A stretch of 64,000 bases of DNA, from the NCBI GenBank assembly GCA_973895155.1, contig OZ316894.1, positions 1,053,968-1,117,967 of the forward strand. Direction: 5' to 3'. Positions 35,390 through 60,316 of this stretch are shown here, piece by piece. How positions within the stretch are numbered: position 1 is the stretch's first letter; each line of letters opens with the position of its first letter. This DNA comes from Marsupella aquatica (Eukaryota; Plantae; Marchantiophyta). Under the pieces are notes generated by a model. It saw only the letters and a list, made by a program, of their open reading frames with translations. It was not told where the DNA came from and searched no databases. A program made the position numbers and the translations under genes.

Positions 35390-38300
35390 CAAGTCTTTGG
35401 AGCAACCCCACTCGTCTGTTGGCAAGGTCATAAGCTATCTGAAAGTTCTGCTGCTGGAAGCTGCCATAGATACTGAGGCCTAGAAGTAGCTTTCAGGAAG
35501 GCGAGGCAGAGATTGGGAACATCGTCGACCTGTATGAAGATGTTATCGGGGGGCAATTCAACATTGAGGTTCGTGAACTGGAAGACTACGGTTGGGATTG
35601 TGGGGCTGGACACTCCAGACAGGTCGTAGCAGAGGTCGTAGCCGTCCTTAGAGAAGTCCACACGAGGGTATGGATGAGCGATGCAAGGCGATTTACAAAA
35701 GGCTTGGAGGCCCGGCTGTCCATCTGAAATAATGTGGTCCCAGAATCCAAAACCAAGCCACCTTGGCCTGATGAAGTGATGGCGAATGCAGCTGCAACCA
35801 AACACAGTCACGTCGAAGACGGAGATTGATCAATATCATATTCATCAAAACAATTAACCATTTGTGCAGCCATGCCTCTAAACTCCAAATATGAAGATCC
35901 AGATTATAAATATATCGAGCAATCAATTCAATTCTGTATTGAGACTCCAAGTTCCTTTAGTAGGGATCGAGTGACAGAAATCAGAAACTCTACGGGGTTT
36001 AAGAGATTTTTATTTTTACAATTTTAGTGAGAGTACAGAAGAATCTTCATAATGAGCTTCACCCAAGTCTTGAGTGTGGATTCTTGGGGGATTAATGCCT
36101 TCAAAATTCCAAAGGGAAAAATCATGATACAATTCTTGATTCTGCAGTCTTCTAGGATAATGCCTTGAAAATTACAAACAGAAAAGTTAGATAATCAGTG
36201 AAAATCACGAAGGGCATTCAGTTACAGTAAACTTACATGAGGGGTACACGAGGGGTGTACCGCCCACAAGGATACCATTAAGAGTGAGGTAGTAGAATGA
36301 GGCATGGGCGTTGTTCCGGGCCAGCGGCGTATACTGCAAGGCGTTACCACCGGTTGACCCTAGTAGCAAACTGCTGGTCTTGGTTAGGGCGCTATCGAAG
36401 TCCACCAAGCAGTACGCGAAGGCGTAATTGATCTGGGAGCCCAGCTGCGATACGAGAGACACTGACCCCATGCCAAAGCCCACCAGCCCATCGGCAAGCG
36501 AGAACGCGCCCTGGTTGTTGTGGCCACAACCAAACCCAATGCCGGAGAAGGGGTGTTTAGAGTGGTGGAGGTGAAGGTGACCGTCTCAGAGGCAAAGTCC
36601 CCTTGCGAGGAGGACTGATCCCCATAGTTAACTTCATATTGGCATGTCTTTTGGGCGGAGCAGGGCTGGGGAGGGTAGAGGACAGAGCAGAGGGCGTCCG
36701 TGCAAGAACGGGTTTTGTAAGACGACGATGCAGATGGGACAGAGATAGGGTCGTTCTGGGAGGAGCAATGAACGCATTTGGAGCACTGCACCCAGATGAC
36801 GTCGCTGCCTGTGTCCACAAGGCTGTAAGTTTCCTGCGCAAAACCCGACTTCAATTCAGTATCTTCAGGATCAAAGTAAGAACATTATTGAACATCAACT
36901 TTGACGACACAAAAACGAGCACAAAAACACGTACCAATCACATGCCTGATTCAAATCAATGACAATCGCGTAATAAAGACCGAAACTAAGGCGCAACTCC
37001 AACTAATCGGTGCATCATTCATTGTTCCTATATATGACTTCAACACTAATTTCTTAATTACGGAGATCCCTTGCATGTCTCAAAATGCAACCCTCCGTGG
37101 ATCATTTGCAGCCGTCTGTCATTTGGCCCAAGCACTCTCTTGTCGACCTCCACAGTTTTCACGGGGCTGCCAGTAGTCTTCTCAAATCGATTGACCCAGC
37201 TAGTCCATCGTTCAGTAACTAGCTAACTACTTCAATATGACTATCGTCTTTCAATCCTGGACCTATAACAAGCATTGTAAAACAATTCATGGTTCGTGAA
37301 TATAACCGAGTGGTCAATTTTATTGCTCGTCAGCCTAGCGACTGAGGTGCATGAGCTGACTCTTCGAGACGTCCATGATGCATTATTACACTTACGTGCT
37401 CTTCCTGCTACAAGAATCTGAAGTCTGGGAGCGGGCTTCCTAGTACCAGACATGGCATCTTCTTCGCTGTGGGATGAACTGCACTCCCGCTTAATTACGA
37501 GCTAGTAATGATTGCAGTGTTGCAGTTGTCAGAGCTCACCACAAGTCTAAGCCGTAAAGCGCGCACGAGCTAGATTGGAATTGGAGTACAGTCATGCCTG
37601 TCCTCGACGCTTCACTGGCAGTCTTATATACAATACTCTAAATATCTGTGCTAGACTCTGTTGCCAGTCAAATCTGCAATGAGTGAATGCTTCGAGTTAA
37701 TGTTTCCCCATTTTCTTTCTATGTTTGCTGTCGGCTCCTTCCTATGTTTGCATATTTGCTCTTGGCTCCCACCCAAGTTTATCAAAATAAAAACTAATAT
37801 TCTATCATTTTGTCACTAGCTCCAGTCCAATTCACTTTGTGCCATTGATTTGGGTGTCCAATTATTCACTTTGTGTCATCGACTTTGGATATGATTATGT
37901 TCTAGCACCTTCATTTTTTATAGCCAACATTAAGTTCCACATTATTTCACTTGTTGTAAATTAACTAACATTAATTTGTTGTAGATTTAACGCGAAGTAG
38001 GCTCTATTGAATTCATTGAGCAAAATAAGATTTAAGGCGATCTAGACTCTATTGAGCAAAATTAATGGGGTCTCTATCCTGGCAGTGTATTTCAAATAGT
38101 TATTTAAGCCATTGACTCACGATGCCAATATATGATCGAAACTGCATTTATGCTGCCTCACAAATCTGGTTCACGTTGACGGCTTTTGACAGCTATTCCT
38201 TGATTTGAATCGGACTCCTTGGTGTTCCCCGTTCTTATTCCGGTAATTACGAGGCCAATTGATACAGTTAATAATTAGAAAAATGTAAAGAAATTTGTCG

Positions 38301-38750: not shown

Positions 38751-40489
38751 AGTTGTCTCCTCTCCTGGTCACCGGAGTACACTTAGTTTAGTGCGAATGA
38801 TGATAGCTAGGGGAAAATTGGCGGGGATAAACTAAAGCCTTCAGTTTAGACTCTCATTTCTAGTTCAGGTGCCTGCTATCTAATTGAGAGACACTTTCGT
38901 GCGAGATGCTCATCACAAGATGCTCGCAATGTATATATTCTGCGTTACTCAGAAACATGCAGCTCGCAGAATCGGGTTGACGGCAATCCAAAACCCAGAC
39001 TCTCATGAAATCGGCAAACCAAAACCCAGACACTCATGAAATGCGTAATCTGAGTTCCTACAGGTTTTGTGTGGCACTCAGGAAACAAAGAACTACTCTG
39101 TCATACCCAGATTCTCTTGAATACAGATAAAGCAAATCCTACCCCGTAGAGAATTGAAATATATGGAAGAACTCCAGGGGTGATTCAACTCTCTCGAATT
39201 GCCGTTATCATTCGCACACAAATTCAACTGTGCAACCAAAGCTCGAGGATTTACGGTAATATTAATATACGTACCCAGTCTGTAGGATGCTAAGGCGTCT
39301 GACTCGGGACCGGCTCGGCTGGACTGGCTCACGGCTCTCAGTATCCCACAATGCTGATCGAGTTCCCATATATTAGGCAAGGCTTGCAAGCTTCCTGGAA
39401 CTTGCTGGTGCAGGGTGTTGAAAGATAGATATCGATATCTAGACAGAATCCACTGCATCCCCGGGATATATATAATTAATCTTGCTCACTGCCCGGAAAT
39501 GGAGGATTAGTCGCACACTCTGCCTAGCAATACTATATACAAACAGAATTGATCTAGAGCGACAGCTCATAAAATGAGACGGGAAGCTAGGGTACCTCGT
39601 GTTCAGATGCGTGTACGTTCTCGCTTGGTCCCACCGCTTTGCGCGCATGCGTGTGGAGGAGTCAAACTTGTAAGAAATGGACTTCGACAGTGGGGATCAT
39701 GAATCGAGAGAAATGTGCATCACCAAGCTCACATGAAGTACAGAATCTTCGGCTAAAAAGTACTTGCAGCAGTGGTTCAGCTATATGAATGAGGGTGCAG
39801 TCGTTTGCAAATTACCCGTGTGTGTAGAAGCGGTCCTTCAGTCAGTCGATCAGTTGTTGAAACCGCCAGGCAATATCTCGAGGAAAAGCTATGCAGCAGT
39901 CGCACACAAATTAAGACTGAGGTGATCAAGATTCAGTCGTCACTGCCAGTTTCTCCCCCGCGAGAGGTGGGCTGAAGAAGACAATCTGTCCCTTTAGTAT
40001 GACAAATGCAAAGTATGTCCAGCTCGCTGCGATTATATACATTCAAACTCTCCCACTATCCCTCTCCCTTCCATTGCGTCCAATCGTACTATAGTAACGA
40101 TAGACCTCTTGTCAAAGTCAAAGTCAGACCAACGTCCTCACTAGGCTCAGTGACGACTGCAGCTCTTATATACGAGGCTGCTTTGTTGGGACAGAAAGTG
40201 GCCTTTGGTTCTCAGAAGTACACGAATCAGAGGGCAGATAGTACAATATTGGAGTCTGTAGGAGATAGAGTAAAGGGTGCTCAGGGAAGGGTTGAGTTCT
40301 GCGTTGGCTATCGATTTTCTCATCTTATTACATCTTAATATTTCAGTTTTGTGAACAGTAACTGAAGCCTGTGAATCGAAGGAGCTGCTGGATTGGTGAA
40401 GTCGAGCCGTCCACCACGGATGGCTTGAATCCGCAAGTGCTGTAGCTAACGAATTAACCACTTACCTGAGAGTTAACCACTTAGTACAT

Positions 40490-40509
40490 CACTATATTCA
40501 TTAAAACTG
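40490..40509 (+). repeat. Left terminal inverted repeat
   Basis: Exact reverse complement of 53182-53201. Confidence 0.95.
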
Positions 40510-40957
40510 TACTTTTAAAAGTCCATAAGATGAACCCTAAAGTTATTTTTGTTCAGGCCAAATTTCTATTAAAGCATTCCCAAAAGCTAATTTTTTTCAG
40601 CCCAAATATACACTTTTGAATGCCCAAAATTTTGTTTTTTTTCACCCAAATGTTTAATAATAACTTAAATCATATATTCTAATTAATTTAAAAATTAGAG
40701 TAATTTAATTTAGTCCAAAAATCAGAGGCCAATACCACTCAGACCATCTATAAATTAAAAAATATAGATGGTCATAAATCAAGGGTCAAAATGAGATTGA
40801 CCCACTATATAATTATTAAATTGTCCAGTCCAATGAGAGAGCCTCACACTAAGCATATATCCTAATTATTTACTTTATCCTACATGTTCAAAACATATCC
40901 TTTCAAGACATAATATGAATGTACAATTCAGGGTAGGCACTAGAGCAACCCTATCTC

Positions 40958-43900
40958 CTAATGATCAAGACAAAACTCATTTGAACAAGAAAGTCTGCTT
41001 CCTGATTTATCATAGCGGATGTCACGGTTGCAAGTATCTCTCGCATGGTGGTTCTTAAACTTATTGGTGAGATCCCTAGTTCTGAGAACTTTCCAAATAA
41101 AGTGCCTTCTATTTTGTGTATGAGGACCAGAATAGTTGTCTCCAAGTATTATGTTTGCAGTTTCTTCGATCTCATCCATGGTCCACGTCTCCAGTGGTGG
41201 GTAATGTTGCACCTCGTTCTTTCCGTCCCAAGGAATCTCTTCAGGAGTCACATCCAAGATGGTTCCAAACTCCCTATGGATACAACGACAATCTCCCCAC
41301 TTCTGTTCCAAAAGAGCATAGATGGCAGCATGATCCTCCTTGCTTGTTAATAAATTGAAAACAGACCACTTTGGATTGTTGACAGTGATATAATGTTGAA
41401 CGCAATAAGCCTTTCTCAATTTGCAAAGATACGGCCATAATATCTCGGGCAAAAAAGTGTCATTTGAAGCTGTGTGAGTAAATGGATTTGGAAACAATCC
41501 ATTCACGTCATAATTCAAAAATGCCTTCAATGGAGAATCATCAATAAGAACTGTATTAGAAGCATCATATTTTTCTGGAAAACGGTCCCAAATGGTTTGC
41601 AAATTCTTCAGAAGTAAATTGGCCTTCCCATCTGTTATATCTGGCCTTTGGATGCAACTATCAAAGGTATCTTCTTGAGTAAAGACAAACTTGAACTTCT
41701 GTCGCTCCTCCTTAGTGAAAATCAACTCCATTAAGTCCATTGTTTTTGGCCTCCTTGCACAGGTCCAAATTGCGACGTCAAAAACCATGAAAGCTGCATA
41801 TAGAAATTCGTGGAGGTATGGGCGCTCCACATACATGAAATTAAACCCTCCACGTCTCCCCCAGTGCACACCACGTAAACTGATTTCGCCATGGTCCTGA
41901 GCTTCTGGTCTTAATGCAATCCCAACAAATCTTGTTAAGGTCAAGAACCAAGAGCTTTCGCCAGATTGGAGAGTGTAGTATTGGAGTGAATTCTGGAAAC
42001 ATTAACATAAGCCCTTAGTCAATGCGACTCAAAGTTTAAACAATTACTACGGAGGAAAACTCTCAAAATTTGAAATCAAACAAACTTTGTTATAGCATTT
42101 GAAGTAGAGAGGAACGACCCTGGGGCGACCCTCCTAGAAAAACATTAATTACATTCAATTGCCATTTTTTAGATCCAAAGTATACCTGGGTCAAACCCTT
42201 CCTCCACAGCAACGCTTTCCGAGGGAATGCCAACAAAATCCTTTGAGGAAGGAGATTCTACGACGGAACTTTGGTCTGTAAAAAAGTATATTATTACAAA
42301 GATAAAGCTTAGATTGTCATTAAAATACCAAGAACCAAAGAATGGGCTAATAATTTCCAATGCTAAAATGCCCAAATTCATCTATTGTTTGATCACCTAG
42401 AACACTCTGTATCTCGGAATTGATACCACTGGGAAGTTGCTCTTCAAAGGATGGGGGTGCAAAAACTGGGCTCAGTCTCAAGTTCAGTTTTTTGTAATCT
42501 GATTTTGCCATTATCTTTGGAGCATCGTCTAGTGATTCTATCATTCCAACCTTTGGTCCATTTCTCCATATAAAATGAGTTGCAGGACGGACTGTTTTCA
42601 TATATCCAGTCCTGCCGATCTCGGATCCAGAATTTTGTGAAAATGATAATACTACGGGGCTTCCTGTAGAAGCACTTGTAAAAACCAATTTAGTCTCTGA
42701 TGAGCAATATAGAGGAGACAGGGGAGGATTTGAAGCACCTGCCTTCTCTTCTTCATTTGCAGCGGTCTCAGGTACTTGACGATCATCCTCCTTTGCAAGC
42801 CCAATGTCTGACATTTCTCCCAATTCTACTGCGTCAATATTGCCTAGACCATCTGCGGTTGCCTTCCAATGTGCGTCCGATGTGGACGATGTAAGATCTG
42901 GGTCCGATTGGTGCATCCAATTCTCTACACCGGCAAAGGGATTTCTTGGTGGGTCGCCCTCAGGTCGACCCACAACATCAGCCAACCCCACACCAAAGTA
43001 GGGAATACCTACCACTTGTGTTCCACGTTCATCCAAATTTCGGGTGACCCTGTCGTCTGTGTCGTGACCCAATTCTCCTTCCTCAATATCATCTTCGCCC
43101 TGGTCTACGCCTTCTTTGGCACCAACATGCGCGGAAACCCCATCGCGGGCTCTACCAAATTTGGAACCGCCCATTCGGTCACTCATTATGGAAGGAACTT
43201 TCTCGCAGAGAACCCTTCCATATGCCTGAGTGAAATCATATTCATCCTCAGTGTCTGAATACACAAAGCATTCTCTGAAACACAACAATGACACCTTCAT
43301 AACCTGTCCTCCCGAGAAAAAGTCAAGTATAGTCTCCCCTTCAGCCGAAAAAAATTCAATAATACTCTGCAGCATACATTTTGGCTTAGCGTGAATATTC
43401 ACAAAGCCACCTCTACTTCCCACCATCTCAAACATGGGAGCCTTTCGTAAGAAATCTCCAATGTGAAATGCCGAAGTTGACTCAGTCTCTGTCTCCTTAC
43501 TTGTCTTACTCTTATTCTTATCTTGCTTCTCTGTCTTGTCTTCCACTTGGAAATCAGGGTCGATCGCCGAATTGTAAGAAAATTGGCAATTAAATCCAGG
43601 CCTGAACACTTGCTTCCAATCAAATTTCTCCTCAGTGGTGATTCCTGCAAAGATTATCTCCTCCATACCACAACTAAAAAGTAAGCCCTCTGGAACTGGT
43701 GTATCACTCCGTCGATAGCTCCCGTAGTCGACGTGGATGTCCATTCCCTTTTCATGTTGCAATTTCCTAAGGGCACTCAAAATGTTTGCAGCAAGTGGCC
43801 CCGGATGCACAGTCATGACAACAACAATTGTTGGATTTCTTGGAAGATCCACAATGTATTGCAGTAATGCAATAATTTCAGCATCGGTCCAAACATGTTG

Positions 43901-46900
43901 TCGGAGCCTACTGAAGTCAACAATGGCAAGAGGACACAAAGGCTCAGGCTCTTGTAGCATTTCCGGCACGGTCGTCTTCATCAAATTCTCACTAAAAAAT
44001 GTCAAGAAAGGCTCCGTGCGAGAACGACCAATCCCACCAAATTCTTTACAATACAACCCATCTAGTCTGACCATCAGACTTTGTGGGAAACTCTCCTTGA
44101 CCACATTCTTCTTCAATGAATTGTTGAGGTAAACCTCACCCGCTGCTCTCCTCAATTTTGTCATCTCAAGCTCAGATTTCAAGGAAGGCAACAATATCAC
44201 CAGAGACTCCCAAGATGTGCCAACAGGAAACTTCTCACGATACTTTTCCACGAAATAGCCAATAATGACTGTTCTCAATTTGGACATTATCTTGATTGTA
44301 AGGGCCAAGTCTCCCATTGCGACAAGCTCTGATTTGTTGGTGACATCCTTCTTCAGCAAGACACGCTCCTCTTCAACGTCCTTCAAGATCTCAATTATCT
44401 GTTTGCTACTATTCTCTCCTTCAAAGCATCGAAAGGTACCGGGAGTGATCAATTTTGGGGGTCTTGGCCCTCCATACCCACCAGCCCCGTCTTGGAGCTT
44501 CCCACTCAACCATTTTGCGCACACGTTCTGCCATAATTCAAAGAGCTCATCTTCGGCAAAAAGTAACCAATAAATGCTCTTTAGGCTTGACTTCCCCATT
44601 GTAACCTTTGCCAGGGCAAACCAATCCTGCATATCCAATGGACTTGACATTAGTTTCAGGGTACAATGCATATGTTAGAAAATTTATACCTATGTTTGAA
44701 ACAGGCTAAGCCGCCTCGCCCCAAGGGCGTGGCGAACCTCTACATCTAACCGCAATTGACTGAAACGGAACTAGGGAATTATTCTTAGAGAGACTAGTCT
44801 AGGTTGCCGCGCCCTGAGGGCGAGGCAAACATTTGCTTTAATCTTCTAACCAAGGAAAACAAGAAAAGGCAGCCTCGCCCTTGGGGCGAGGCAAACCTCT
44901 ACCATTGACAATCTTTAAACAAAGCGGATCAAGAATAGTTTGCATTGCTCCAACATGTACCTAATAGTTTTTCCTGTCTGTAATTTGATTGGTCCCAATC
45001 CCTGGACGCGGCGGTTTCCCACACTCCTCAAACTGCCTTCGTGCATGAACAATAGTCTCTAAAAAACAAGACTTAAATTGCATAGTATCATTGACAGCAT
45101 TCGATAAACTTGAATGCTCAACCAAAATTGTCTTCGGAGTGAGGTCAGATAGGATCCTTGCTTTCCTATACTTTAGTTTGTTGGCAAGATCTGTCAGCTT
45201 GGCGTCAGTCTCGGCCCACCCTTGGATCCATTGGGCAGCTCTTGCAGAATGCTGGCCACTGATGGCAAGGAATTGGATCTCATGCTTCTTCACACCAATC
45301 AAAAACTCTTTCCTATCCTGAGGTGTGTTGTCATAATGAAGCAACTGTTTACTGCTCTCGCGATACGGAATCAAATCAGCAACTTGTGGTTCCTGTCCAG
45401 GGTTTTTCATCATAGACTTTGATATCTCCATTGCAAGCGAAAGATTGAACATTCGATATACAAAAACGGCCGATGGCGGATTAATACTTTTTACAGGAAT
45501 ATCAAAAACTTCGCGGATGCCAAAAGTATAATACTGCTCAATATTACGCAAAACCTCTTGGCCTTTGAGCACATCATCTTCTTTGGGTCCTTCTGTCGGA
45601 CACATATCATCCTCTGGATGCAAGACAAAGTTTGAAGTCGACCCTGACATTGGTTTTGATTTCGCAACCTTTGCCTTCTTTGTCTGCTTTTTTTGGGGGC
45701 CCTCATCATCTTCATTTTTTTTAGCCATCTTCTTACGGCGTGAACTCCCAGATTGTTTCTCTTGTTGAACAACCGGCTCTTGAAGCTTTCGTTTCTTCTC
45801 TGTCTTTGATTGCGCACTTCTTTCCACTGTCTTCTTCTCTCCTTTGCCTTATGCTTTGCTTCTTTTTTCTTCATCTCTGAAATCCACGTCCGGCACGCGG
45901 CCTCTTGAAACTCTGGACAAAAAATGAAACTCTTGTCGATTGCTTGCTCGTATGAAAAATGTGCCTTATCAATCATCCTTTGAACTATCCAAGTAGACGG
46001 AGGGTCCACACTGTCCGCATTGTCATGCATGTGCTTCTTTACGTAGAGAAATCCAAACACTAGGTCAACTCCACTTATTTGAGAACGCGTCTTCTCAAAC
46101 ATCTGATCAATTGTTACTCCATCTGGGAAGAATCCCATATCAGCTACGCTTATCTCCAATCGAGCCATCCACTCAACATTCAGTAAAGTCGAGTAGAGTT
46201 TTATTGGCACTAGAAGTCTCATCCACTGAGATTTCTCATTGGACTCAACAATAATCGTTGCATTGCGGTTGTTGTCCGTGTTCACAAGGACGACTGGACC
46301 TAGAGTAACAATTGTCTTGCGGTCATTCAATTGACTTGTGATGCCCTTGAAACAAATCAAGAGACTGCCTTCCGCCGACACCCCAACTTCTAGTGCCCAT
46401 CTAAATCCTGGAGTATCTTGGTCAGGGAAAACAAAGTCCTTGATATCCTCGTCCATAATATTTAACTCCGGCTTCTCAAGATTTTTTCCTGGTAAGAAAC
46501 ATTGAAAACAAAATGGTCAGCATCATATTTTTAACATTGACATGTGGAAAACTTTCAAGGTGCCTCGCCCTTGGGGCGAGGCGACAAATAGAAGATTGCA
46601 AAATCTTCTTTGCTCCTAGTGCAATTAGCCCTGCCACCTCATCCAAGCAATCAAACATTATTTAGGAATGCAGACGACATCGCCTCGCCCCAAGGGCGAG
46701 GCAACTTCTAGGAAAGCAAACAACATTTAGGAATGCAGACAACATCGCCTCGCCCCAAGGGCGAGGCAACTTCTGGAAGCAGACAACATTTAGGAATGCA
46801 AAGGACATCGCCTCGCCCCAAGGGCGAGGCAACTTCTGGGAAAGCAGACAACATTTAGGAATGTAGAGGACATCACCTCGCCCCAAGGGCGAGGCAACTT

Positions 46901-47443
46901 CTGGGAATGCAGACAACATTTAGGAATGCAGATAACATTGCCTCGCCCCAAGGGCGAGGCAACTTCTGGGAATGCAGACTACATTTGAGGAATGCAGACT
47001 ACATTTGAGGAATGCAGACGACATCGCCTCGCCCCAAGAGCGAGGCAAAAAATAGAATATAGCTAAAGATCCTTTATTAATGTAAGATACAAGGTCCAAT
47101 ACGCCTTCGGAGCAACAAGAAATCTAGAATGAAATAGACGTCGCCTCGACCTTGGGGCGAGGCGACTGCAAAGGAATATAGAAATTTTCCTAATAAGAAG
47201 TTTGAAATCCAAATTAAAGTAAAGTTGCCTCACCCTAAGGGCGAGGCAAGAAGTTGAAGCAGGTGGTGCCTTACGTGGAAAAGTTAACTGGGCTTTCTTT
47301 GACGCCTCCAACGCATTGTTAACCAATTTTTGGACATCCGGGTCTTCAGGGTCATATTCATACAGAGAGTTATAATTGAAGTTCAATGACTCTTGAGAAC
47401 TGGCGGAGGTGGTGGAAGCTTCAGAACTGGAGGAAGTAGACAT
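40958..47443 (-). CDS. Transposon cargo gene, 5 exons, about 1,683 aa when repaired: ParB/Srx-like + degenerate N6A/N4C DNA methyltransferase fold + FCP1/NIF-like HAD domain (disrupted in this copy)
   Basis: Exons 47443-47275, 46488-44961, 44626-42397, 42275-42186 and 41992-40958 are all GT-AG and phase-compatible. Lesions: 1-nt deletion near 45838, TAG at 44961-63, 1-nt insertion near 41932. Confidence 0.7.
44713..44892. repeat. Three 21-bp palindromes GCCTCGCCC-NNN-GGGCGAGGC in intron 2 of the cargo gene
   Basis: Copies start at 44713, 44806 and 44872. Confidence 0.9.
46562..47247. repeat. Array of nine 21-bp palindromes in intron 1 of the cargo gene, partly as a ~65-bp tandem repeat
   Basis: Copies start at 46562, 46682, 46747, 46810, 46875, 46940, 47026, 47143 and 47227. 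Confidence 0.92.
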
Positions 47444-48278
47444 TGTAAGGGGCGAGTGAGATTTAAGATGACACGTGGCAGCAATGGAGAATGCCACAGG
47501 CTGCAAGAGGGCACTAACAGGCAAACAATGATCGAGGGAGCGACCCAAAAGGGAAGGGAGCAAGGCGGAAATAAAAGCCTTAGAGCGAGGCGGAAAACAA
47601 ATCCCAAGAGCGAGGCAAAAACAAAAGCCCTAGAGCGAGGCAAGAGGGAGGCAAGGAGTGAGGAGACGAGAGAGGAGGCAAGAGGGAGGCAAGGAAATGA
47701 GGCCTCAAGCGCAAGGCCTGCCTTCCTATACCCCCTGCGAGCAAGGAGTCCGAGGAGGCAAGGATCCGAGAGGGTACGGAGGCATCAATGCGCGCCAATG
47801 ATGGAGACCCTCCTCGGTGCATGTGATCGTGAGTCACCGATGGTGTGACCACTCACGACCACTCGCGACTCACCTACCAATTTTAAACTTCCGAGCTGTC
47901 AGCGGTGTGTGCTCGCAACTCACCTATCACTCGTGAGTGATTGGCTGACACCCTATCCGATGTCTACTTGTGTGCTGGGTGCGTGCCTCATCCACCCGTG
48001 CCCGATCTGTTGGTGTCCACTCGTGTGCTGGGTAATATGTGGGCTTTTTGCCTCTCAAACTGAGTATAGACCTCCCACAATCCATTTTTTTGGTTCATTG
48101 TCATTTAGACAGTGATTGGTACGATCACTGACTCTCCTCTGTCCGAGTGCCTTGTTTACGTCCGCATGGTTGAATGCAAGGTTTAGTAAGGGCACTGTGG
48201 TGCTAAGAGTTACAATGCTGGCATCCAAGGTACCCATTTAGCTTGTACAAGGGTGGACAGAGATATATTGCAGAGCAG
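47444..48278. promoter_or_regulatory. Probable bidirectional promoter and 5' UTRs between the two element genes
   Basis: Genes diverge here; GAGCGAGGC half-sites at 47580-47641, CACTC(A/G)C/GTGAGT repeats at 47829-47940, and a splice donor CAG|GTTAGT at 48279. Confidence 0.45.
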
Positions 48279-48478
48279 GTTAGTGTTTTTATTTATTTAT
48301 CTTAGCAGTACTAGCTCAACTACATCTAATTCAATACCTTTAAGCCAAACCTAGATTAAGATTTACACATTAGGTTCTAGATCATATATTTTACTCATTC
48401 TAAACCTTTATCCACAGTCTAGCATGTGTAGAACTTATTGTACCCCTTTATGTGATTACTAACATAGTTTCTAGAAGT

Positions 48479-48773
48479 GGGTCGGAATTATTTCGTGTCG
48501 ACCTGACTATGTCATCTTAACTAGCATTTTAAACTGGTATATAAAAGCATAAGCAAGATAGTTTCACAAATAGTTTTGACATAATTTCAACTTAATAGTT
48601 GGAGTAGGGTCGAAATAATTCCGACCCAACTTATCAATGTTTAGTCAATTAAATCATTTTAAGACATATTGTTGGAGGAGGGTCGAAATAATTCCGACCC
48701 GACTTGTAAATGTTTAGTCAATTCAATCATTTCAAGACATAATGTTGGAGGAGGGTCGAAATAATTCCGACCT
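48479..48773. repeat. 73-bp tandem repeat carrying 21-bp palindrome GGGTCGAAA-TAA-TTCCGACCC, in the predicted 5'-UTR intron (48279-48892) of the transposase gene
   Basis: Copies start at 48607, 48680 and 48753, plus an inverted partial copy at 48479. Confidence 0.88.
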
Positions 48774-48905
48774 GACTTGACTGTATTTAGGGTTTTGAGT
48801 GATTTTACAATATTTTTTGGAGGAGAGTCCAGATTTTGAAACATGATTGTAACATGGGGAACTTAACAATTTCTAACTTTATTTGAATACAGATAGTCCG
48901 CTATC

Positions 48906-51900
48906 ATGATCAATTTTACACGAGGGGATGAAGTGTCATTGGTGATCGATGGATTTGAAACGGCAATTGGGATAGTTCAAAAAGTTGACCCCCAGGATAC
49001 TATACAGAACATTTGTCTAGGGGACAATCGAATTGGGGTATTGATCGAAAAGTGTTTTGATGGATCGCGTCAACTTCCATTTCCTTTGCCCAAATTTTCT
49101 ACATTGGCTGAGGCAATTGACTCCTGCGTGATTTGGGATTGTGCATTGGCATACTTGAGGTCATCAACTCAGCGCCGAAGAATCAATGTCGATGATTTCT
49201 CTTTGGCTGGAGATGCTGGAAATGATAAATCCAAAAGTGATGCAAGGGTTGAAGAGGACGTGTTCAAGGAAGGAGATGAAGTTCAGATGTTCATTTTTGA
49301 TCAGTTGGTTGCAAATGGAGTTGTTTTCAAGACAAATCCGATGGATATTTGTCATACTCAAACACTCGGGGTTGGTCGCATCAGTATAAGAATATCTGAT
49401 ATTGTTAAGGGAAATCAAAAATTGCCATACTCGCACCCTGGAGCTGATACAATAGCAGAGGCCTTGCATACCTGGGTTATTTGGGATGTTGTGCATGTTT
49501 CTAGAAAGGGCACTCTTCGAGATTTTGGCGTGTTTGGTAGTTCAAATATTTTCAATGATCTTCCATTAAAAGATTTTACACTACGTTCCAACTGGATGGC
49601 GGAGGAGGTTGATTTGTATGACGCTTCTCGTTGTCGAAAGGTTGCAACAGGTGTTATCACGGTCCCATTTGAAACAGGTGCCGTTGACGATGAACTTCTT
49701 GGTGCAGATCATGTTGGTGTTGCTGTTGTGAATATCAATGAACCCGGATTATTTCCAAATATCCATGTTGGTACCCCTGGCTTGGTGAGGTGGGAAATCA
49801 AATCCCTTCTATTGATTTCGTCTCAAAGGTTTCTTGGGGATATCCTTGAGGAAGTTTCATAGAAGTGGATGGAGTCGGGTCGAACTAAGGGCGATCCGGA
49901 TTCGGATGGTGATGGTAAACCTACAAAAAGACCATACAATTTCATTAGGAGGACAAAAGTTGATCTTGAGGAGAGGAAGAAAAGGCATTTGGAGTCGAGG
50001 GCACTTTTGAAAATTAACGAGGAGTCCATTGATTCCATCCAAAGAGAAGGTTGTTGCAAGCTGAAGTGTTGCTTGAACATGCCCAGGGAGGACTTAGAGG
50101 CAATGAGGAGGGAATACCATGGAATGTCAAGTGACAACAAAACAAGTCACATCTTTAGTCTCTTTGGGTGTAGAGAGGAGCAAGTCAAGAGAAAGGGATT
50201 TTTTGTTCTAAAGGGACGTGTGGTTTGTAAAGATGCATTTATTAAAATGCATGGGTTCAGTACAACAAAGTACTATGACTACAAAAATCAATACGAAGCT
50301 GGTTGCACAATTGGTTTCCATGGAAATCAGGGACAACGGAAGACACGATCAAGCACTTTGCACGCTCGCGCCTTGTTGGAGTCCATTTTAATCCAAAATG
50401 GGGAACCAATGCCACATCTTCCCTATGGTGGGTCCAACGGCACTGACACTATTGAATATCGGCTCCCATCTTGTTTTACTAAGAAGGAGATTTTCCAAGA
50501 GGTGTTTACCATAGATGGGTTTGCTAAGGTTACTGAAGTTACTATGTACAACATCTGGAAAAACTCATTTGATAATTTTGACTTTCACAAGGGAAGTGCA
50601 TTTGCCAAGTGCACATTTTGCACTGAGTTCAAAGATCAATTGATGCGGGAGAAGAGAAAAAAAGAGCGTGCAGAGATTGAAGAGAAAAGAGCGCGACATC
50701 TTCGTGAACAAATGTCAAGAAGATATGTTTACTATGCTCATAGGGTTCTTGCAAAGAAGGATCCTCAAAACTATCTTTGCATTATTCACGATAAGATGGA
50801 TCAAGCCAAGACTTGGATCCCCAGGTTGGTCCCCACTCCAAAATCCCTCTCTGGTAGTGATCAGCCTTTGCCTATTGCTCTTACTGGGATGTTAACCCAT
50901 GGAAGAGATCCTGGAGTGTATGCACATTTTAGTTTGACTGGACTTTGGCCTGGAGATGCAGACTTTACCGTGACATCTTTGGCCAAATGCCTCCGAGATT
51001 TGGAAGATTACACAGGAGACAAAACTGGAGACCTTCTTGAGGGATTGAATTGGAATGCAACTAGGCCAATATTTCAGTCCCTTCTAGACTTTGAAGCATT
51101 TCTGGCCGGTTACTTGGAACCCAAAAATGTTTCAATTGTTCGATTTCAAGGCATTGAAGATGGTCAGGAGACTAAAAAGTCAAGCACAGTGGATGTTGGT
51201 TCTAAGGATGATCCTGAGACTACTAGGGGCTCTTTCAAGCCCTTACCAAGGCACCTAACGTTGCAGATGGACAATTCAGGGAAAGATAACAAAAATCAAT
51301 ATGTGATGGCATTTTGCACTGAGCTTGTTAGCAGGGGGTGTTTGAAACTGTGCAAATGTCATTCCTCATGGTTGGCCACACCCATGAAGACGTGGATGCA
51401 TTTTTTCTCAAGTATCCAAACAGGTCAGATACAAAGAGGTTGCTACCCTCTTGGGGTTGATGGCTGAGGTTTGGGAGTGTGAAAGCATTCATCCTGTACC
51501 ACGTTTGATTCAAGAGGTTGCATCTTACAAGGAGTATTTGAAAACTTTCCAGGTGAAAGAGATAGAAGGTCACTCAAAACCAGTGACATTTCTTTTCTCC
51601 ATGAGGGATAATGTGCCAGTGTATCAATATAAAGCACATGTCAAGCAACCTTGGCTTCCGGCAATGGGGAGGTCCATTTGGAGAACTGATCCCATCACAA
51701 ATGCGCTCATTTTACCGGAAGGCCAACCATTTGCAAAACCTATATCTGGGGATGTACAAAAGAAGGCTGGAGAAATCATCCCATTCCTTAATCGCTATAT
51801 TTATTTCTTGAAGAAAAGTTGTAAGGATGAGACCTCTGCAGCATATAAAGAGAGATTTCCTCTGGTCAAATATTGGGAGAATCTTGTGCAAGCACTGTCC

Positions 51901-52611
51901 GAGGAACTTACAATAGAAGGGGAGGGGGAAAGACATTTGCCATTGACAACTGATTTTTGGCCAAAGACTAACCATGGCACAGGTTACAAGATGATTTTGG
52001 GGACATCTCAGCCGTCAAGTGAACCTTCTCAAAATCCAGAGATGATGGACCTTCAAAATGAGTACATGGAAGAGATGGAAGATGAAGCTGCACCCTTTGT
52101 TGGTGCACGACAAGAGCGAGAACCTGCACGTTGGATTCCTCTACAAGATATTCAAGAAGGTCACTTTGTATTTTTACGTCCAGAGGATGAATGGGAACAG
52201 GAAAATGGCAAAGGGCGTTTCTGGTTGGTTCGAGCTTTGGGTGGTGTGGATCCAAACCATGAGGTTCCCTCAACAGATTTGCAACATATTGAAGGGTCTT
52301 CTTCAACGTCTGTTGAGAGCATTCCTCTTAGGAATGCTCCTATGTTCCAAGTACAATGGTGGAGGCCTAAACATGGTAAGCATGATGCAAAGGATGATGT
52401 TCGATATGAACGTTGCTTTCAAACCACTAAGACTTGGGAGTTGGATCCTGGGTTTGACAATGTTACTCAAAGTTGGCAGTTTGCAAATTCTGCAATGTAT
52501 GGGTTTAAGTCAGGTGCTAAAGAACAAAATATTATGGATAGAGGTTTGACAATTCCTAAGAATGTTTTGAAAACTCTCAAAATTTACATGGAAGGTATAA
52601 TTGATGAGTAG
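48906..52611 (+). CDS. Transposase, about 1,235 aa when repaired: three Tnp1/En/Spm-like domains + Cys/His region + DD(D/E) core with Sola1/DUF7869-like motifs (disrupted)
   Basis: Three repeats of A.G.V...DP......LG..R..V.I......LP.P.....T..EA....VIW; then CCKLKCC, VCKDAF, CTFC, IIHDKMD, LQMDNSGKDNKN and FLMVGHTHEDVDAFF. The three ORFs join through one in-frame TAG (49860-62) and two 1-nt homopolymer deletions (G5 51334-38, T6 51401-06). Confidence 0.82.
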
Positions 52612-53181
52612 ATTGATAGAACTCGTAGGTTACAAGTCTCCACTCAAATGACTTGTGATTAAGAGGGTCGAGTTGATTTCCATGCGTTGGTCTAAAGTGA
52701 GAGAACAAGACAATCAAATTAATACTCTATGATCTCTCAAAGCTATTGAATGGACTTTCTTATAATTATTATTTTATTTGTCTTAGTATATTTTAATTCT
52801 AGAAAATGATGTCATTTCATTCCTTCTAGTAGGTTGGATATCATCCTAGTTAACTTTGTCTAGACACTATAGTCATTCCATTGTATTGGTGCTTAGTTAG
52901 ATATCTTACTCAAGCTAAATGTTTTGAATATAGATGCTATCAAAGCTTATATGTTATTACTAGATTCTATCTATTTTCCAACCAAATGAACACTTTTATC
53001 ACCCAAATGTTTTTTAATATCATCCAATTTAATATTTTACTTTCCCAAAATTTCATTTTTTTGTCCCCAAATTTACATTTAATGATGCTTGAATTTTCAT
53101 TTTTCATCTTCCAAATTTACAATATTCATGCCTAAAACTATGTTTTTAAATCGCCAAATTTCCCTATATCCTTTATAATTT

Positions 53182-53201
53182 CAGTTTTAATGAATATAGT
53201 G
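53182..53201 (-). repeat. Right terminal inverted repeat
   Basis: CAGTTTTAATGAATATAGTG, exact reverse complement of 40490-40509. Confidence 0.95.
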
Positions 53202-55767
53202 ATTTACCTGAGATAAATATTTATAGGATGACATCAAATCCCATCACTTTTCATTTAGCTGCAAAATGTGAACTCATCGGTAGTCTTCAGGTGGACATAG
53301 TAAACTCAACAATATTCATTAGACTAAAAGAAATAAAACACATCAATAATTGCAAGTCACGATACTGTATGTAGTTAGGTCCAGGGAGGAAGTTATTAGC
53401 TATTAAAACATGTGACGCAGGACATCTTCTCCAGAGCCGAGGGGCCGAGTTCAGGAGCGAGGTCTATACGTACCTATGTGGAGCAGCCCGTCTACACGTA
53501 CTCCACACTTCCACACTCCACACTTTGAATGTGATTTTGAAGAGCTCTTTGGAGGAACAATGGATGGGATGGGCACTCGTCATAATTGCGAGTGTGGATG
53601 ATACAGTGTTGAGTGATTGTGTAAAGAGTGTCATGAATGTGGCCAACAAGCATTTGACCTCAGCACTATCTGAGACGAAAACAGCTAATTTCCGCATGGA
53701 TGGTCGTGCCTGACCACTTGCAGGATCGAGATCAGACCATTTAGATCAAGAGGCTCCAGGTGGAGCTTCTTCTGTTTTCGTTTTGGCACCAAAGAAGCTC
53801 GAATTAAAGGTGGCGAGCCTCTTTTTGACATCACCTTTCTAGATTACCTTCTGAAGAGGGCTGTTCGAAGCCTTCGATATGACTGCTTTTGCAACCGTTT
53901 TAGTGCAATCCGATGACTGTAAGCGTTTCAAGCCAAGTACGGTACATTGTCTTGGACGTCATCGTGATCGATCGATAGTCTCATCAAAACTTCGCTACGC
54001 ACTATTGAACCGTGCAGCCAAACAATCAGCTAGCAGCTAGCACTTTGTTCAGAAACTCAGGTTCTGAGTACCCAAAACCCTTAGAATTGGCATGCTTGGA
54101 AGACATGACCCGATGGCAGCGCAAGTACGTGCACAACTCCAGTTGACATTCGCGGCAGATGCCGCAGCACTACAGTAGCATTGCTACACTCGCTTGGTCT
54201 GGCCCCTGCTGCTCTTCTAGCCTTGACCAGCCATACCACAGGTGCTAGGTCAATCGAGTCGATTGAAGCCGGAACGCAGCTGTCAATTACACAGTGAATT
54301 TGATGGCGTCGTCTAGACTGACGTCTGGGTCACTCGGTCACCCGGTCTTGTAGGCCTCAATTACCGCCGCTCTCCACTAATGAAAAGCTGCCTCACTCTT
54401 CACATTTTCAGCTAACTGTTCATTGCAGTGTTATTACTCGTTCAACTTCTTCCCTTTAGAGCTCACTGTAACCTGTCAAGGCTTTGATGGCACAAAAGAC
54501 TCATGAGTGGTTTCCTCGAGATTTTGTTAATCGTCGGTCAACAATGCATAAGTGCAGTGTGTGCAAGTGCATTCTGTCGTCAAGTGCAGGCTGGCCATGT
54601 AATCCCCTAATATTTAAACATTTTCCTCAGTCTCTAAATGCACCAAAAAATGTAGTTCACATAAGTGCAGGTCGACCCTTACTGTTTAGAAATAATGGCA
54701 GTAAGTGACAAATACATAAGTGCATTTTTTATTGTTTGATAAGTGTACAATGCACATGCACTTATCAAGCAGTTACTGCAACGGATAAGAAGACCCACAA
54801 TCCTGCACGAAAGAATAACTGGATCCTAAAGGCCATGGTCCTATATGCAAGAAAGGACCAGTAATCAACACTGCATTTTTCAAATTGATTGCACCTCAGT
54901 GGTTGTAGTTCTAATTCAGACCCCGTTTCACAAACATGTATATATATATAAACATGACCTTTAATCAATCAGCATACCAATTCGACTCTGTACTTTTCGT
55001 CTCCGTCCGGGTGAACTCGCACTATGCCACGTTGACTCTCGCACAAATGTGCAGTCCCAAGGTCATATTTATTGACGAGTGGAGCATACAATTGTCTACA
55101 TAAAGTAGCTAGTTTCATGCACTTATCCAGTTGAATAGTGCAATATGAGGGCTCGTGATATGAGTAGGCCGATGTGTGTGAGCTGAGAGCATCTCCTACT
55201 CCGCCTACTGGGTTTGCTTACTCTTATTGAATATGGTGACCAAACCCAGGAAAGAAACCCATTCACTCTAGAAAGCTATGAATCCCATTTTCACGGACAG
55301 GGTTTTTTTGGTTAGTGGATCTCATATATATTGGATATGTATATGGAAGAGTTGTACATGTCAGCATAGTTGACTTTCTTCTGGGTTAGTTATACTTGAT
55401 TGAATTTTCAACATTTTAATCTACAATCACCAGTTGCTGATCTCTACTATTTAGTAAAATTATCCCGTGGGGACCAGTACTGGGGTTTCCAGTTTAGGCT
55501 AGTGCATTTCAGGTTGCCATGATAGGCACACACAGTGAACTAAGAAAAAAACTTTGTTAGATTGGGTATTTATTTGTACCCAGTATCCAAACAGTGTTGG
55601 GTTGACAACTCATATGAGGAAGTGCATTTAAGCTCACTGCACAACGAGAAGACTATATGGTAAGATGTTACATGGATTGTGTTGCAGGGATGACAGTGAA
55701 CCTGTTTGACCACTGGCTGCTCCTACAGAAGTCACCTAGTAGGGTTGGGTTCCATGCTCAAAGGTCT

Positions 55768-55920: not shown

Positions 55921-58541
55921 AGTCTCAAAATTGGATCTAAAAGATGTTAATGCATGTTCTTCTTATAAAATTTTTAAGTCTTCTCTTGGAACCAATTAAA
56001 GGACCCTATTTTTCATTGCATATGATATATCAACTTGTGGAAATGAAAGCCCCGAGGTTCCTTGGGCAAGGGGTAGGGAATATGAGTACTCCCTTTCACA
56101 CACCCTGGGCCCCAATACTCTGTATTTGTTGGTGCAAAATATTCAAAATGTATGAATCTTAGATTTGATAGCTAATGATTTGAACTTGAGAGCCAATGAC
56201 AATGCCCTGCACTATATAAGGGGAAGGGGTACCAGTTTCCAGGGGATTAGAATGGTGGGTAGGAGGGAAAATTATACTCCCTAGGTACTACAATATTAGT
56301 ACTCCCTTCACTCCTTGTAAAAGCTTGAACATTATGCACATTGTACTCCTCAGTCCCAGCCCACAAAACCCAACCCAAAGTAATTGAAGTGGGCTGGAAA
56401 CCGTCTCCTGTCATTTTCCAGGTCGCTTTTCTGTCACAAGTGCAATGCATCAAATTGTTCAGCCTTGTCATCAAATTGTCTAGTACTGGAAGGCCGTCAC
56501 TCCAACTTTCTTGTCGACGTATGTTTCAACTCACATAGTCATAATTAATTAAAGTGTACTTTGGTTCAATGTTCTTGAGTTGAAAAATCAATTGCCTCCG
56601 TGATCATAAATTTCGTATAACCTCTCTTTGTTGTTGAACATCCATCTTGAATCCCATATAAAGTCTTACTGTCTCACCCGTGTCTCACTGTAGTTTGTCC
56701 TGCTTGAATTGCAAATCAACTGCACGTAAACTCTCTAACTTCTTGTACACTTATGGACAAGGCACATTTAAAACTTATTTAAATTGTTTTTCCGGCTTGG
56801 CAGAGCAAGGCTTTAGAGGGATAATAAAATCAGTCTGTACCCATACAAGGCATTCTCGATCACATACTCAGGGATTGATGCACATGATGTAAATGAGATT
56901 TCTCAGTCAACTCCTAATTGGTTGTAACAAAGCTAAGTAACATTACTTCCCCACCTTTCCCTCTTCAATTAGTTGCTTTATTATTGTTGTTTTCATGAAT
57001 CCTTTAGTCATGGGTAACTACCTAAGTGAGTAGTTGTCTTCACTGAACTAGCCAATGAGGGGCGCCTTTTTAGCGAGTCTTGCTGGAACTAATATTCCTG
57101 GATAAGTGTATAGAACTGGGATGCAGCTATAAAATAGCAGAAAGGTTTTAGTAAAGGAATGTGAAGTCCAAGGGAAGGCACAGAATTGTGCCTATGCACA
57201 AGGTGGCAACTTATTGAGTGTGATACTGACAGAGGCACGACAAATGCCTATGGACACCATTGCTACATGCATAAGTGCAAAGTTGGAGAAGGCACTTATC
57301 ATGTTAGTGCAAACCACTGTATGTAAGTTCAAGGCCAGCTAGAGCCAGAAAGTGGACCTAAAGAGAGACTATTGCAACAGAATCATGCCCATTAGAAATA
57401 TCTATACACTCCAAAAGAGCCAAAAAGGTTGTTCAGGAGATATGATCCCAGTAGGAGACCCCGTAAAGAGGAGAAAACTAGGAAAGCCCAGGGTCAGAGA
57501 CCAAAGTCAGAACCAAAAAGCCCACTAAAGCAAAGGAGACTGGTGACCAATCTAGTGAGGTAAGCAAAACCTACATAAGGTTAATAAATGAGTAGACGAA
57601 AAACATTATTGCAAAAGACAATACTTTTCTCTTGAAAGGGAAACTGCGGCAAGCCGCCCTCTTGTCTTCCACTAGTAAAGGCTGTACAGTTGAAATAAAG
57701 AACAAGCCATGCTTGCGTCAACCCAACTTTAAATCAGCTCAGTACACTACCGTATATATAACTAAAAAAACCAATCCCTTGACCACAGTTATGTGGTGAT
57801 AATTGACCCTGACATATTCATAAATACAAAGAAAACCATGACATAATTATTTGTAAATATAACAAAAAACATTGTCTGAGAGTATTGTAGATTAAAACAT
57901 CTGCAATGTAATCAAAAGCTGTCTCATCAAAATGGCATCTTTAGAAATACAAAGAACACTATGACAAAATTATTTGTAAGTACAACTAAAATAATGACAA
58001 TATTGTAAATTAAAACATCTTTAATGGCAATATAACTATAAGTTGTATCATCAAAAACAAAAATCAATTAATAATCTACTTAATCTCCTCTGACAAAAAT
58101 GAATGGGGATCTGGAGGTTGCTCTACACAAAAGAACATATAATCATGCTCTACACAAAACCCCAATTTGAGGAATATTGAAATATTAGATTAATTCTAGT
58201 TTTATCTAAATAGTCTCTAAAAAGGCCTGATGCACACCCAATTTAATTGACCCCTTTGTGGATGGCCAAAAAGGCTAGAACAGGAAGCATAGAAAAGTAA
58301 CTACTAAGAAGTCCTGGAATGTACTCCACATAGCCACAAATCTTGGGAAAGGGGGGAGGGGGATGAAGGGGCATGCTACTGTGTTGCATGGCCCCCCTCC
58401 ATGTGTCCCTGGGAGGGCCCCACTTAGAGCATTGACCGTGGCAGCCCCCTGCCCAGGCAGTCTTCCGCTCCTGGCGCCACAGTTTCCTCAACTGATTAGG
58501 TAAGGTAACAATAGACCACTATAGGTAAATGTTATGTTATT

Positions 58542-58819
58542 AGGGCGTCTCAAAGCTGACAATTAATTGATAGACCTTGAATCCCTAGTTATGGGTTAAG
58601 GACACAAAAAATAACAGACCATGAAATTCTTACTAGTCTATAACTTTTTGCCATAAGGATTGGTTGTATGCCATTTACCATGATTAGTCACCTCAGAGGC
58701 TAGCTAGTGAAAGAAAAAATAAAATGAACTTTTACGTAATCTTAATGTGAAAAAGCTATGACCATTTCTTTATGGGTGAATGCCGTCATCCGTATTAACT
58801 CTCAGTTTTGAGACGCCCT
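58542..58819. mobile_element. MITE of about 278 bp (PIF/Harbinger-like geometry)
   Basis: TIR AGGGCGTCTCAAA(G/A)CTGA(C/G)A(A/G)TTAAT at both ends, flanked by ATT on both sides (a TA TSD reading is also possible); a related solo end lies at 59228. Confidence 0.75.
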
Positions 58820-60316
58820 ATTAGTTATATAACTTGATGATAAGTCATAGTTATTCAAATTAAACCTATAGACTGTGTCAAGAGAAGCTAAAAGGGCTTT
58901 AGTGTTCACAAGTTCTTATAGTTTAGTTGGGAGAAAGGTGAAGTCTATAGTCTAGAGTGCATTTTTAGATATTCTAAAGTAGACTAGGGTATTTTTGGGC
59001 TAAGTTTCTAGTTGCATGGCCATAGAGTCAGTACTTTTGGAAAAAATGGATGCCCAATGAACTTGTTGTTTGAGAGTTCTTATGGGGTTTTCTCAATACA
59101 TATATCGTTTAGAAAAATAGCTTTGACATCGAGGGAGCCGACGGGAAGTCATTGTTGAAGCTTGATCTGCTTTCATCTTGGCAGAGGAGGTTTAATTTAC
59201 AAGAGACGGGGACTATAAGCTAGCTAATAGGGCGTGTCAAAGCACTATTGCAAACAGTTATAGCTCAGGACATAAATGCTATTAAACATAAAATGCTATT
59301 AATTCCGGCCAGGACAGAAGAATTGCTATGGGCAAAATACAGGCCCCATAAGGGTGGTTTGTCCAAACAGAAGTGCGATGGGCTCCAAAAACACTTTGCT
59401 TAGGATAACACTTTGCTTAGGAGAGAACTTTGACACTCCCTACTATATCCCAAATTCAACTTTGACTTGCAAGGCACCGTGCACTGAGAAGCACCTGCTT
59501 TGTCTACGTTCTCCTAAGGAGGAAAACCTGCTCCGTTTACACTGAGCTTAGTAGTAAGCGGACTCTGAGAGGCACTCTCAGATCGAGCTGCTAAGACCCA
59601 GACCACACATTCGCATCTATAAAATAAAAGAAGAGCACAGGCAGATAAATGATCTAGACTCTGCACATCGTTCCCAATCTCTCAATGCACAAAAGTCCTG
59701 TCACATGATGACATTCAGGAGACATTATGTTGAAATCGCACTCTGAGCGAGGTCGGGTACTGTCGGGAACTGTCGAGGAGGAACGGGGACCAAACGAGAC
59801 TCATTCAGCTGTGGCCTGGGATCGAATATCATCTGCTGCTGAAGAAATCGCTTGGGTACGTACATTGCCGTCCACTCCAATGTACTGTGAGCTTCTTGTT
59901 GCTTTTGGCCCCTGCTGAAGTCCTGTCTGCTGAGCTTGAAACAGTTGGTCCTTCATTACATTAATCATCTATGTAATTTACGCTGCCTCTTTGCTTGTTG
60001 CACTGCGTGGCTGGTGCACAGAGAGCCGGAGGACGAAGTAGGAGGAAGGAGTAAATTGCTGGTGCCTCCTCCGTGGGGGATCTGTTTCAGACAGTTCATC
60101 CACACCATCGCACGAGCTTGATTTCCAGGGTTGCAAGGAAGAAGACATGAGGTGATGCTGTGACACAGGTGGCCGTCCCGACCTCTCTACTCAATGATGC
60201 CAATTTATATATTATCGACTTAGGATCTGAATTATTTGTCACTCTTACAACGTGAGCAATGGGAATTGCAGAACAGTTCCGTGGATTAATCCATCAATCA
60301 ACTGGCGACTCTCACG

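Follow-up and report, generated by a model that had tools for sequence, protein, structure and literature searches.

Here we describe a DNA transposon in a 64,000-nucleotide stretch of the liverwort Marsupella aquatica (contig OZ316894.1, positions 1,053,968 to 1,117,967; hereafter the window), together with the methyltransferase (MTase)-like accessory gene that it carries. The window element is one decayed member of a multi-copy family of 12.7-kb transposons with terminal inverted repeats (TIRs); its two genes, one transposase-like and one accessory, stand head to head on opposite strands (Table 1). Other copies were read from contigs of public runs—X1 and X2 from organism A, X3 and X6 from organism B, X5 from organism C—and are many, across all three organisms; organism A, possibly the one from which the window derives, is not independent, and B and C come from other studies. 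The two TIRs match each other at 29 of 32 positions. On the left, the similarity of the organism C contigs stops at 40488, where a joint in X3 also enters; on the right, an X2 contig ceases to match at 53203. The flanks read GTAC and TTAC, which agree at three of four positions and form a possible 4-bp target duplication with one mismatch. Depth in X1 is 15 on both flanks vs ~470-515 inside the element (long contigs), which suggests tens of close copies, although depth does not equal copy number.

The introns of the accessory gene hold an array of palindromes, GCCTCGCCC-N3-GGGCGAGGC, that is new here and was missed by an earlier note made from the letters of this DNA. All 12 matches in the 64-kb window lie in introns 1 and 2 and nowhere else, with 0 in each of 100 shuffles. 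Their CpG dinucleotides are kept in 23 of 24 cases, though CpG observed/expected in the exons is 0.45-0.72; one palindrome mismatch, at 44809, is private to the window copy. Upstream of the ATG, 25-bp and 11-bp tandem repeats (47558-47693) contain half-sites of the intron palindrome (47610-47642). A second palindrome class, GGGTCGAAATAATTCCGACCC, is present in four copies vs a chance mean of 0.18.

Table 1. Features of the transposon and its two genes, in window positions
Feature	Position	Strand	Details
Whole TIR DNA transposon	40488..53203		12,716 bp; ends from TIRs and boundaries in other copies
Left terminal inverted repeat	40488..40519		
Right terminal inverted repeat	53172..53203		
Predicted exon 1, Ser-rich	47275..47443	-	ATG 47443; phase-1 donor CAC|GTAAGG
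Intron 1	46489..47274	-	9 palindromes and a 65-bp tandem array
Exon 2	44961..46488	-	N-terminal domain, basic linker, ParB-like region
ParB-like region in exon 2	about 45150-45506	-	GQHS at 45246-45257
Intron 2	44627..44960	-	phase 0; 3 palindromes
Exon 3 to own stop	42347..44626	-	helical region, MTase-like domain, acidic linker, C-terminal domain ending LGDQTIDEFG
Beta-class N4/N6 MTase-like domain	43211..44020	-	Pfam PF01555 E 0.003 (below cut-off)
Candidate intron 3	42276..42396	-	exon-3 frame has its conserved end in the first 50 nt
Candidate exon 4	42186..42275	-	90 nt, phase 1-1; 50% GC, flanks 27% and 35% GC
Candidate intron 4	41993..42185	-	
NIF/FCP1-like HAD domain, Cys/His-rich tail	40958..41992	-	Pfam NIF E 1e-13, 51.8 bits vs cut-off 21.8
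Palindrome GCCTCGCCC-N3-GGGCGAGGC, 12 copies	44713..47247		all in introns 1 (9) and 2 (3)
Palindrome class GGGTCGAAATAATTCCGACCC, 4 copies	48479..48773		between the two genes; 73-bp tandem unit
Transposase-like gene, DUF7869	48897..52611	+	Pfam PF25273 E 2e-15 and 1e-6; PF03017 E 0.01

The earlier note had joined five open reading frames (ORFs) through four GT-AG introns into one accessory gene. All four introns do start with GT and end with AG, and the exons join in the phases stated there, with the in-frame TAG immediately before donor 2; its total of 5,052 nt, offered as corrected for two 1-nt indels, is indeed the exon sum (169+1528+2230+90+1035) but a raw, uncorrected one, and with junctions 3 and 4 in use, intact copies would come to 5,058 nt (1,685 aa). 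Junction 1 is predicted, with indirect support from a donor at 7/9 to consensus, a matching phase, and a homologue (P0121) that starts at the exon-2 start, near the acceptor; exon 1 itself has no homologue among 124 proteins. In P0121 the two exon-2 halves share a single frame, at 34% and 75% identity. Exon 2 opens with a 210-aa domain (45860-46488, minus strand), 34% identical to P0121 without gaps and with no family match. Junction 2 appears real and is well supported by comparison: in a relative, L001 (33% identical), a GT-AG intron interrupts the gene at this very codon boundary and in the same phase, and two homologues, P0017 and P0118, continue from the ParB-like region directly into the DW at the exon 3 start. 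L001 was the one true relative among 16 loci of a metagenome scan; of the 15 others, 13 were translated and proved to be bacterial methylases whose match is confined to motif I. Searches for longer relatives returned none for exon 3, none for the NIF part (both of these being weak searches) and one for the ParB-like part, and in a tblastn search of phages neither P0118 nor the ParB-like piece gave a match. The relatives of the accessory protein with a species name belong to Riccia sorocarpa and, at 56% in the ParB-like part, to Calypogeia fissa, in keeping with a liverwort host.

In the window copy the joined frame is broken three times, and these breaks are private to it, as the earlier note had allowed for; in copies from three organisms the accessory reading frames are intact. 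The TAG at 44961-63 reads CAG in 4/4 runs (X1, X2, X3, X5; X1 depth 500/500). RNA editing of this TAG was considered and rejected: other DNA copies simply carry CAG. A base missing at 45834/5 is present in X1, X3, and X5 (3/4 runs; X2 shows none). At the third break, 5 nt have been lost between 41879 and 41880, ~50 nt downstream of the DLN motif discussed below; these 5 nt are present in 4/4 runs (X1 515/527, X5 12.6/12.6, X6 384/384, X3 5,665/19,348). Hence one of the two proposed 1-nt indels stands, as the frameshift near 45834 with one base missing, and the other, placed at DLN, gives way to the 5-nt deletion.

The MTase-like domain named in the earlier note is upheld by the fold of a homologue model and by a profile match to M.RsrI (E 3.5e-6); a search of 1.84 billion representatives gave 115 relatives with E no higher than 0.001. 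The modeled protein is P0118, ~30% identical to the window protein, with an alignment of 36 of ~120 proteins, and its predicted local distance difference test (pLDDT) score is above 90 over much of residues 280-745. The model aligns with CcrM at Z 17.7 (root-mean-square deviation 3.7, 224 aligned), with M.PvuII at Z 16.1, and with M.RsrI at Z 16.0; in a fold search its top 11 rows are all beta-class amino-MTases, with the whole domain covered. A single-sequence fold of window exon 3 reached pLDDT 36 and was not used in the fold search. The predicted fold is a permuted, beta-class Rossmann fold with motif order IV ... X-I.

DPPY-type motif IV is needed for methylase catalysis, and it is this motif that the family appears to lack. 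No (D/N/S)PP(Y/F/W) is found in the window domain, which has no PP dipeptide, nor in the 21 relatives that cover the likely site; the census took in 28 of 69 phmmer hits, those covering >120 residues. At the likely motif-IV place stands DFSR (Asp at 43916-18), and D-[F/L/S]-x-[R/K/H] is found in 21/21 relatives with the Asp invariant. DFSR was assigned to motif IV by reading aligned ranges, not as tool output, with DPPY at the position we take it to hold in M.RsrI. Motif I, DFFSGG (43307-24), is one residue shorter than in M.RsrI; it is FSGG-like in 19 rows, with F and the last G invariant in 19/19, and the N/HPxxKP motif is conserved.

The ParB-like region is a different case—here the label given in the earlier note stays tentative. 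The helix/strand order and ISGQHSARAA resemble, by eye, phage ParB-N (IVAGHGRVLAA), and hhalign pairs ISGQHS with phage VAGHGR at a score not above reversed and shuffled controls; the likeness is one of pattern. No Pfam, PHROG, or NCBIfam match was found for the region, and fold searches, which barely covered either, returned no match for it or for the C-terminal domain. A GxxRxxA arginine patch is a feature of the ParB/Srx N-terminal domain. At the place aligned to it, by an alignment itself unproven, QHS is invariant in 6/6 rows and no Arg is found.

The NIF unit is the clearest of the three by profile, and the FCP1/NIF-like call of the earlier note holds with a Pfam match well above cut-off. 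Its closest solved structure is UBLCP1 (3shq, E 2e-9), with TIGR02245 below cut-off. Motifs II-IV are recognizable as WTC, LLKNL, and LIDDS. In NIF phosphatases motif I is DxDx(T/V); here it is DLN (DLNK), DxN for DxD, with no variant listed in other copies, which read LLVLDLNKICWDC around DLN when intact, and it is DVE in P0084. The NIF frame is intact in other copies, and 5 of the 10 listed exon 5 substitutions are synonymous. This unit is likely a phospho-protein-binding module. Because all three domains are without a key catalytic residue, active CTD (C-terminal domain)-phosphatase or methylase chemistry is argued against.

We give slightly better than even chances to a reading in which the MTase-like accessory protein is a non-catalytic binder of the twelve intron palindromes, shielding the transposon family from host silencing. 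Such protection has a precedent in Arabidopsis: the VANC protein binds short motifs that lie in the introns and tandem repeats of the VANDAL element encoding it (PMC5735166). The N-terminal half would be ParB-like, dimerizing and loading at these sites of two-fold symmetry; the MTase fold would grip DNA, perhaps sensing S-adenosylmethionine or methylated bases, without methyl transfer; the protein would shield or activate copies of its family in a VANC-like manner, and through the NIF unit it would also bind a phosphorylated host protein. The window copy, being unable to make the protein, would be served in trans. Several points weigh against this reading. In hhalign, the match to ParB scores 21.9, below both the reversed alignment (23.3) and the highest of 40 shuffles (24.3), and 18.0 once the insertion is removed; the ParB-like part of the P0118 model is at pLDDT 40-50, and the fold model as a whole is of that homologue, at ~30% identity. 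Global hhalign put DPPY elsewhere than DFSR, with low confidence, and the invariant Asp could still support catalysis. As for the palindromes, a subfamily in X1 and X3 is without 46592-47027, and thus without six of them, and in L001 the intron, 106 nt long, contains no copy.

What the protein is depends on its C-terminal end, which the earlier note had resolved into a single 1,683-aa product. The transposon, the MTase-like part, and the FCP1/NIF-like part of that proposal stand and splicing is predicted, but the single fusion is unproven, and the exon-3 frame likely ends at the conserved stop 42347-49, for which no variant is listed in 4 runs. The 16 codons past donor 42396 (GDQTIDEFG..stop) match a motif that ends 17/20 of the proteins covering the tail (14/17 clusters) in the form [DNSY]E[YF]G followed by no more than 11 residues; the other 3 of 20 stop before it. 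Since most of the 20 look like plain ORF calls on DNA contigs, they cannot show splicing. Because intron 3 would remove the ending of 17/20 homologues, the predicted main product is very probably one of ~1,325 aa from exons 1-3, and junction 3 is a doubtful candidate that conflicts with protein conservation. An additional 1,685-aa splice form through donor 42396 falls a little short of an even chance; the alternative to it is the NIF unit as its own 349-aa protein from ATG 42002. As a start, ATG 42008 was rejected, for it reads ATT in X3, X5, and X6. The stretch at 42347-42745 (minus strand) encodes a conserved ~130-aa C-terminal domain (HY.W..GP.KG ... IDEYGS) with no Pfam match, partly modeled at pLDDT 85-90 in P0118.

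That the fusion is instead the main product—a constitutive 1,685-aa ParB-like/MTase-like/HAD protein linking the recognition of DNA to a phospho-protein, for instance the RNA polymerase II (Pol II) CTD—we hold to be unlikely, though several features speak for it. Exon 4 is phase-symmetric, GC-rich, and free of stops in the joining frame alone, and the 50 nt past the donor are AT-rich (30% GC) and intron-like; donor 42396 has 6/9 consensus positions with no variant listed, and ATG 42008 is not conserved. Moreover, the Riccia sorocarpa models P0100 (by Pfam) and P0084 (motif by eye) place NIF behind the MTase-like part, and two gene models of that species join the ParB-like to the MTase-like part. 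Set against this, besides the conserved ending, are a diverged subfamily whose alignment runs to 42352 and picks up again at 42009, exon 4 being absent, the want of the exon-3 C-terminal domain in the Riccia NIF fusions (R1sor_016354 and R1sor_013679), which are computer models, and the failure of two weak searches to find long relatives. Synonymous variants at 2/4 past the donor vs 0/4 in exon 4 also speak against the fusion, though past the donor a single X5 contig is missing 1 nt at 42371. No homologue of exon 4 was found. About equally improbable is an elaboration of the binder reading, in which a three-part pseudo-enzyme (ParB-like clamp, disarmed methylase, disarmed CTD-type phosphatase) would have its C-terminus switched by alternative splicing, the long form sitting on parS-like intron palindromes and tethering a phosphorylated host factor such as Pol II, as a family-specific anti-silencing system independent of VANC. 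An active, non-canonical N4-cytosine/N6-adenine methylase that marks its own palindromes, as proposed for Ectocarpus Sola1-1, strikes us as less probable still: the whole fold is kept with motif I, N/HPxxKP, and the 21/21 Asp, and Marchantia has bacterial-origin N4-methylcytosine writers (bioRxiv 2021.02.12.428880), yet neither the window domain nor the 21 relatives has D/N/S-P-P-Y/F/W at the site. Least of all do we expect captured cargo without a role for the element, its palindromes being neutral intron repeats or RNA hairpins. The array does differ in size between subfamilies, and tandem expansion could explain 6/12 copies; however, the frames are intact in three organisms, the same motifs recur in relatives 23-48% identical, across many clusters that include Riccia and Calypogeia, and the same layout arose in a brown alga (PMC12477816).

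The transposase-like gene has the motifs HDKMDQ, QMDNSGKDNKN, and GHTHEDVD and is itself damaged: it has a stop codon at 49860-62, and its frame changes twice near 51340-51410. Its N-terminal part (48897-49859, plus strand) consists, by eye, of three small-domain repeats, one of them weakly Transposase_23 (PF03017, E 0.01). Both element ends have 44-bp subterminal repeats (40561-40651, 52983-53116). The sequence TTACCTGAGA follows the right end (53204-53213) and also stands 16 bp before the left end (40457-40487), with a duplicated TTAACCACTTA between; this arrangement may reflect a footprint of repair or, alternatively, a longer target duplication. Plant genes near the element encode a leucine-rich repeat kinase, a RING-H2 protein, an aspartic protease, and L27a; the aspartic protease (TAXi_N) gene, outside the element at 36205-36884 (minus strand), has a frameshift. 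A 30-bp inverted repeat at 58538-58823, with arms 226 bp apart, is possibly a miniature inverted-repeat transposable element. Rfam gave no match.

Among known systems, the NIF unit resembles UBLCP1 and the FCP1/SCP proteins in motifs II-IV; it differs in its DLN motif I, in having no ubiquitin-like or BRCT domain, and in residing on a transposon. Phage fusions of ParB to N6/N4 methylases (Aeromonas phage ST4_002 and 80 IMG/VR relatives) have the same order, ParB-N and then a beta-class MTase (PMC4738411), and such fusions rank 2nd and 5th by aligned length in the viral fold search, rank 5 being named ParB/Sulfiredoxin. The phage proteins keep DPPY and GHGR, whereas the window protein has DFSR and GQHS, a 200-aa helical insert separating the two domains, and introns. 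In eukaryotes, Iyer et al. describe methylases fused to ParB-helix-turn-helix in chlorophytes and chytrids (PMC4738411). The architecture that the earlier note did not recognize is partly in print, as a ParB-MTase core on a eukaryotic transposon (PMC12477816); its HAD unit was not found described. Within Creative Commons-licensed PMC and bioRxiv texts, we found no paper mentioning DUF7869, none treating FCP1, transposon, ParB, and methylase together, and no description of what the alignments here indicate—a methylase family-wide without the standard catalytic motif, traveling with a HAD phosphatase-like unit in liverworts.

To our knowledge, few transposon anti-silencing systems have been identified in plants. 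VANC is like the present protein in being a transposon-encoded accessory protein with short motifs amplified in its own introns and non-coding parts (PMC5735166); it differs in belonging to a Mutator-like element and in its non-palindromic motifs of 8-9 bp, its function is experimental where ours is inferred, and no homology is expected. Plavaka elements of Bostrychia (PAG2/PAG3) share a PF01555 methylase, ParB-like domains, and tandem inverted repeats beside the ParB gene (bioRxiv 10.1101/2025.02.11.637652); they have an EnSpm/Plavaka transposase and domains on two genes, paired with SET or 2-oxoglutarate oxygenase, and no HAD domain is mentioned for them. Sola DNA transposons have TIRs and a 4-bp target duplication (PMC10741241); the liverwort element has TIRs, a target duplication matched at 3/4 positions, and a transposase recognized by the DUF7869 profile alone, for which no relative of solved structure was found. 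The closest parallel is Sola1-1_Ec32 of Ectocarpus, with a 1,104-aa ParB-MTase gene opposite its transposase (PMC12477816). Both are large TIR elements with an accessory ParB-like and N4/N6 MTase gene on the strand opposite the transposase, action on the own element has been proposed there, and Sola1-1_Ec32 has a 4-bp target duplication where the liverwort flanks match at 3/4 (PMC12477816). The comparison is by description, not by sequence; set beside that account, the liverwort element is in a land plant, is 12.7 rather than 21.5 kb, and has an extra NIF/HAD unit and intron palindromes, and its MTase is without motif IV, a motif assessed on the liverwort side alone. One element thereby offers both a candidate protein and a candidate 21-bp target, and the idea that a ParB-MTase protein acts on its own element becomes directly testable.

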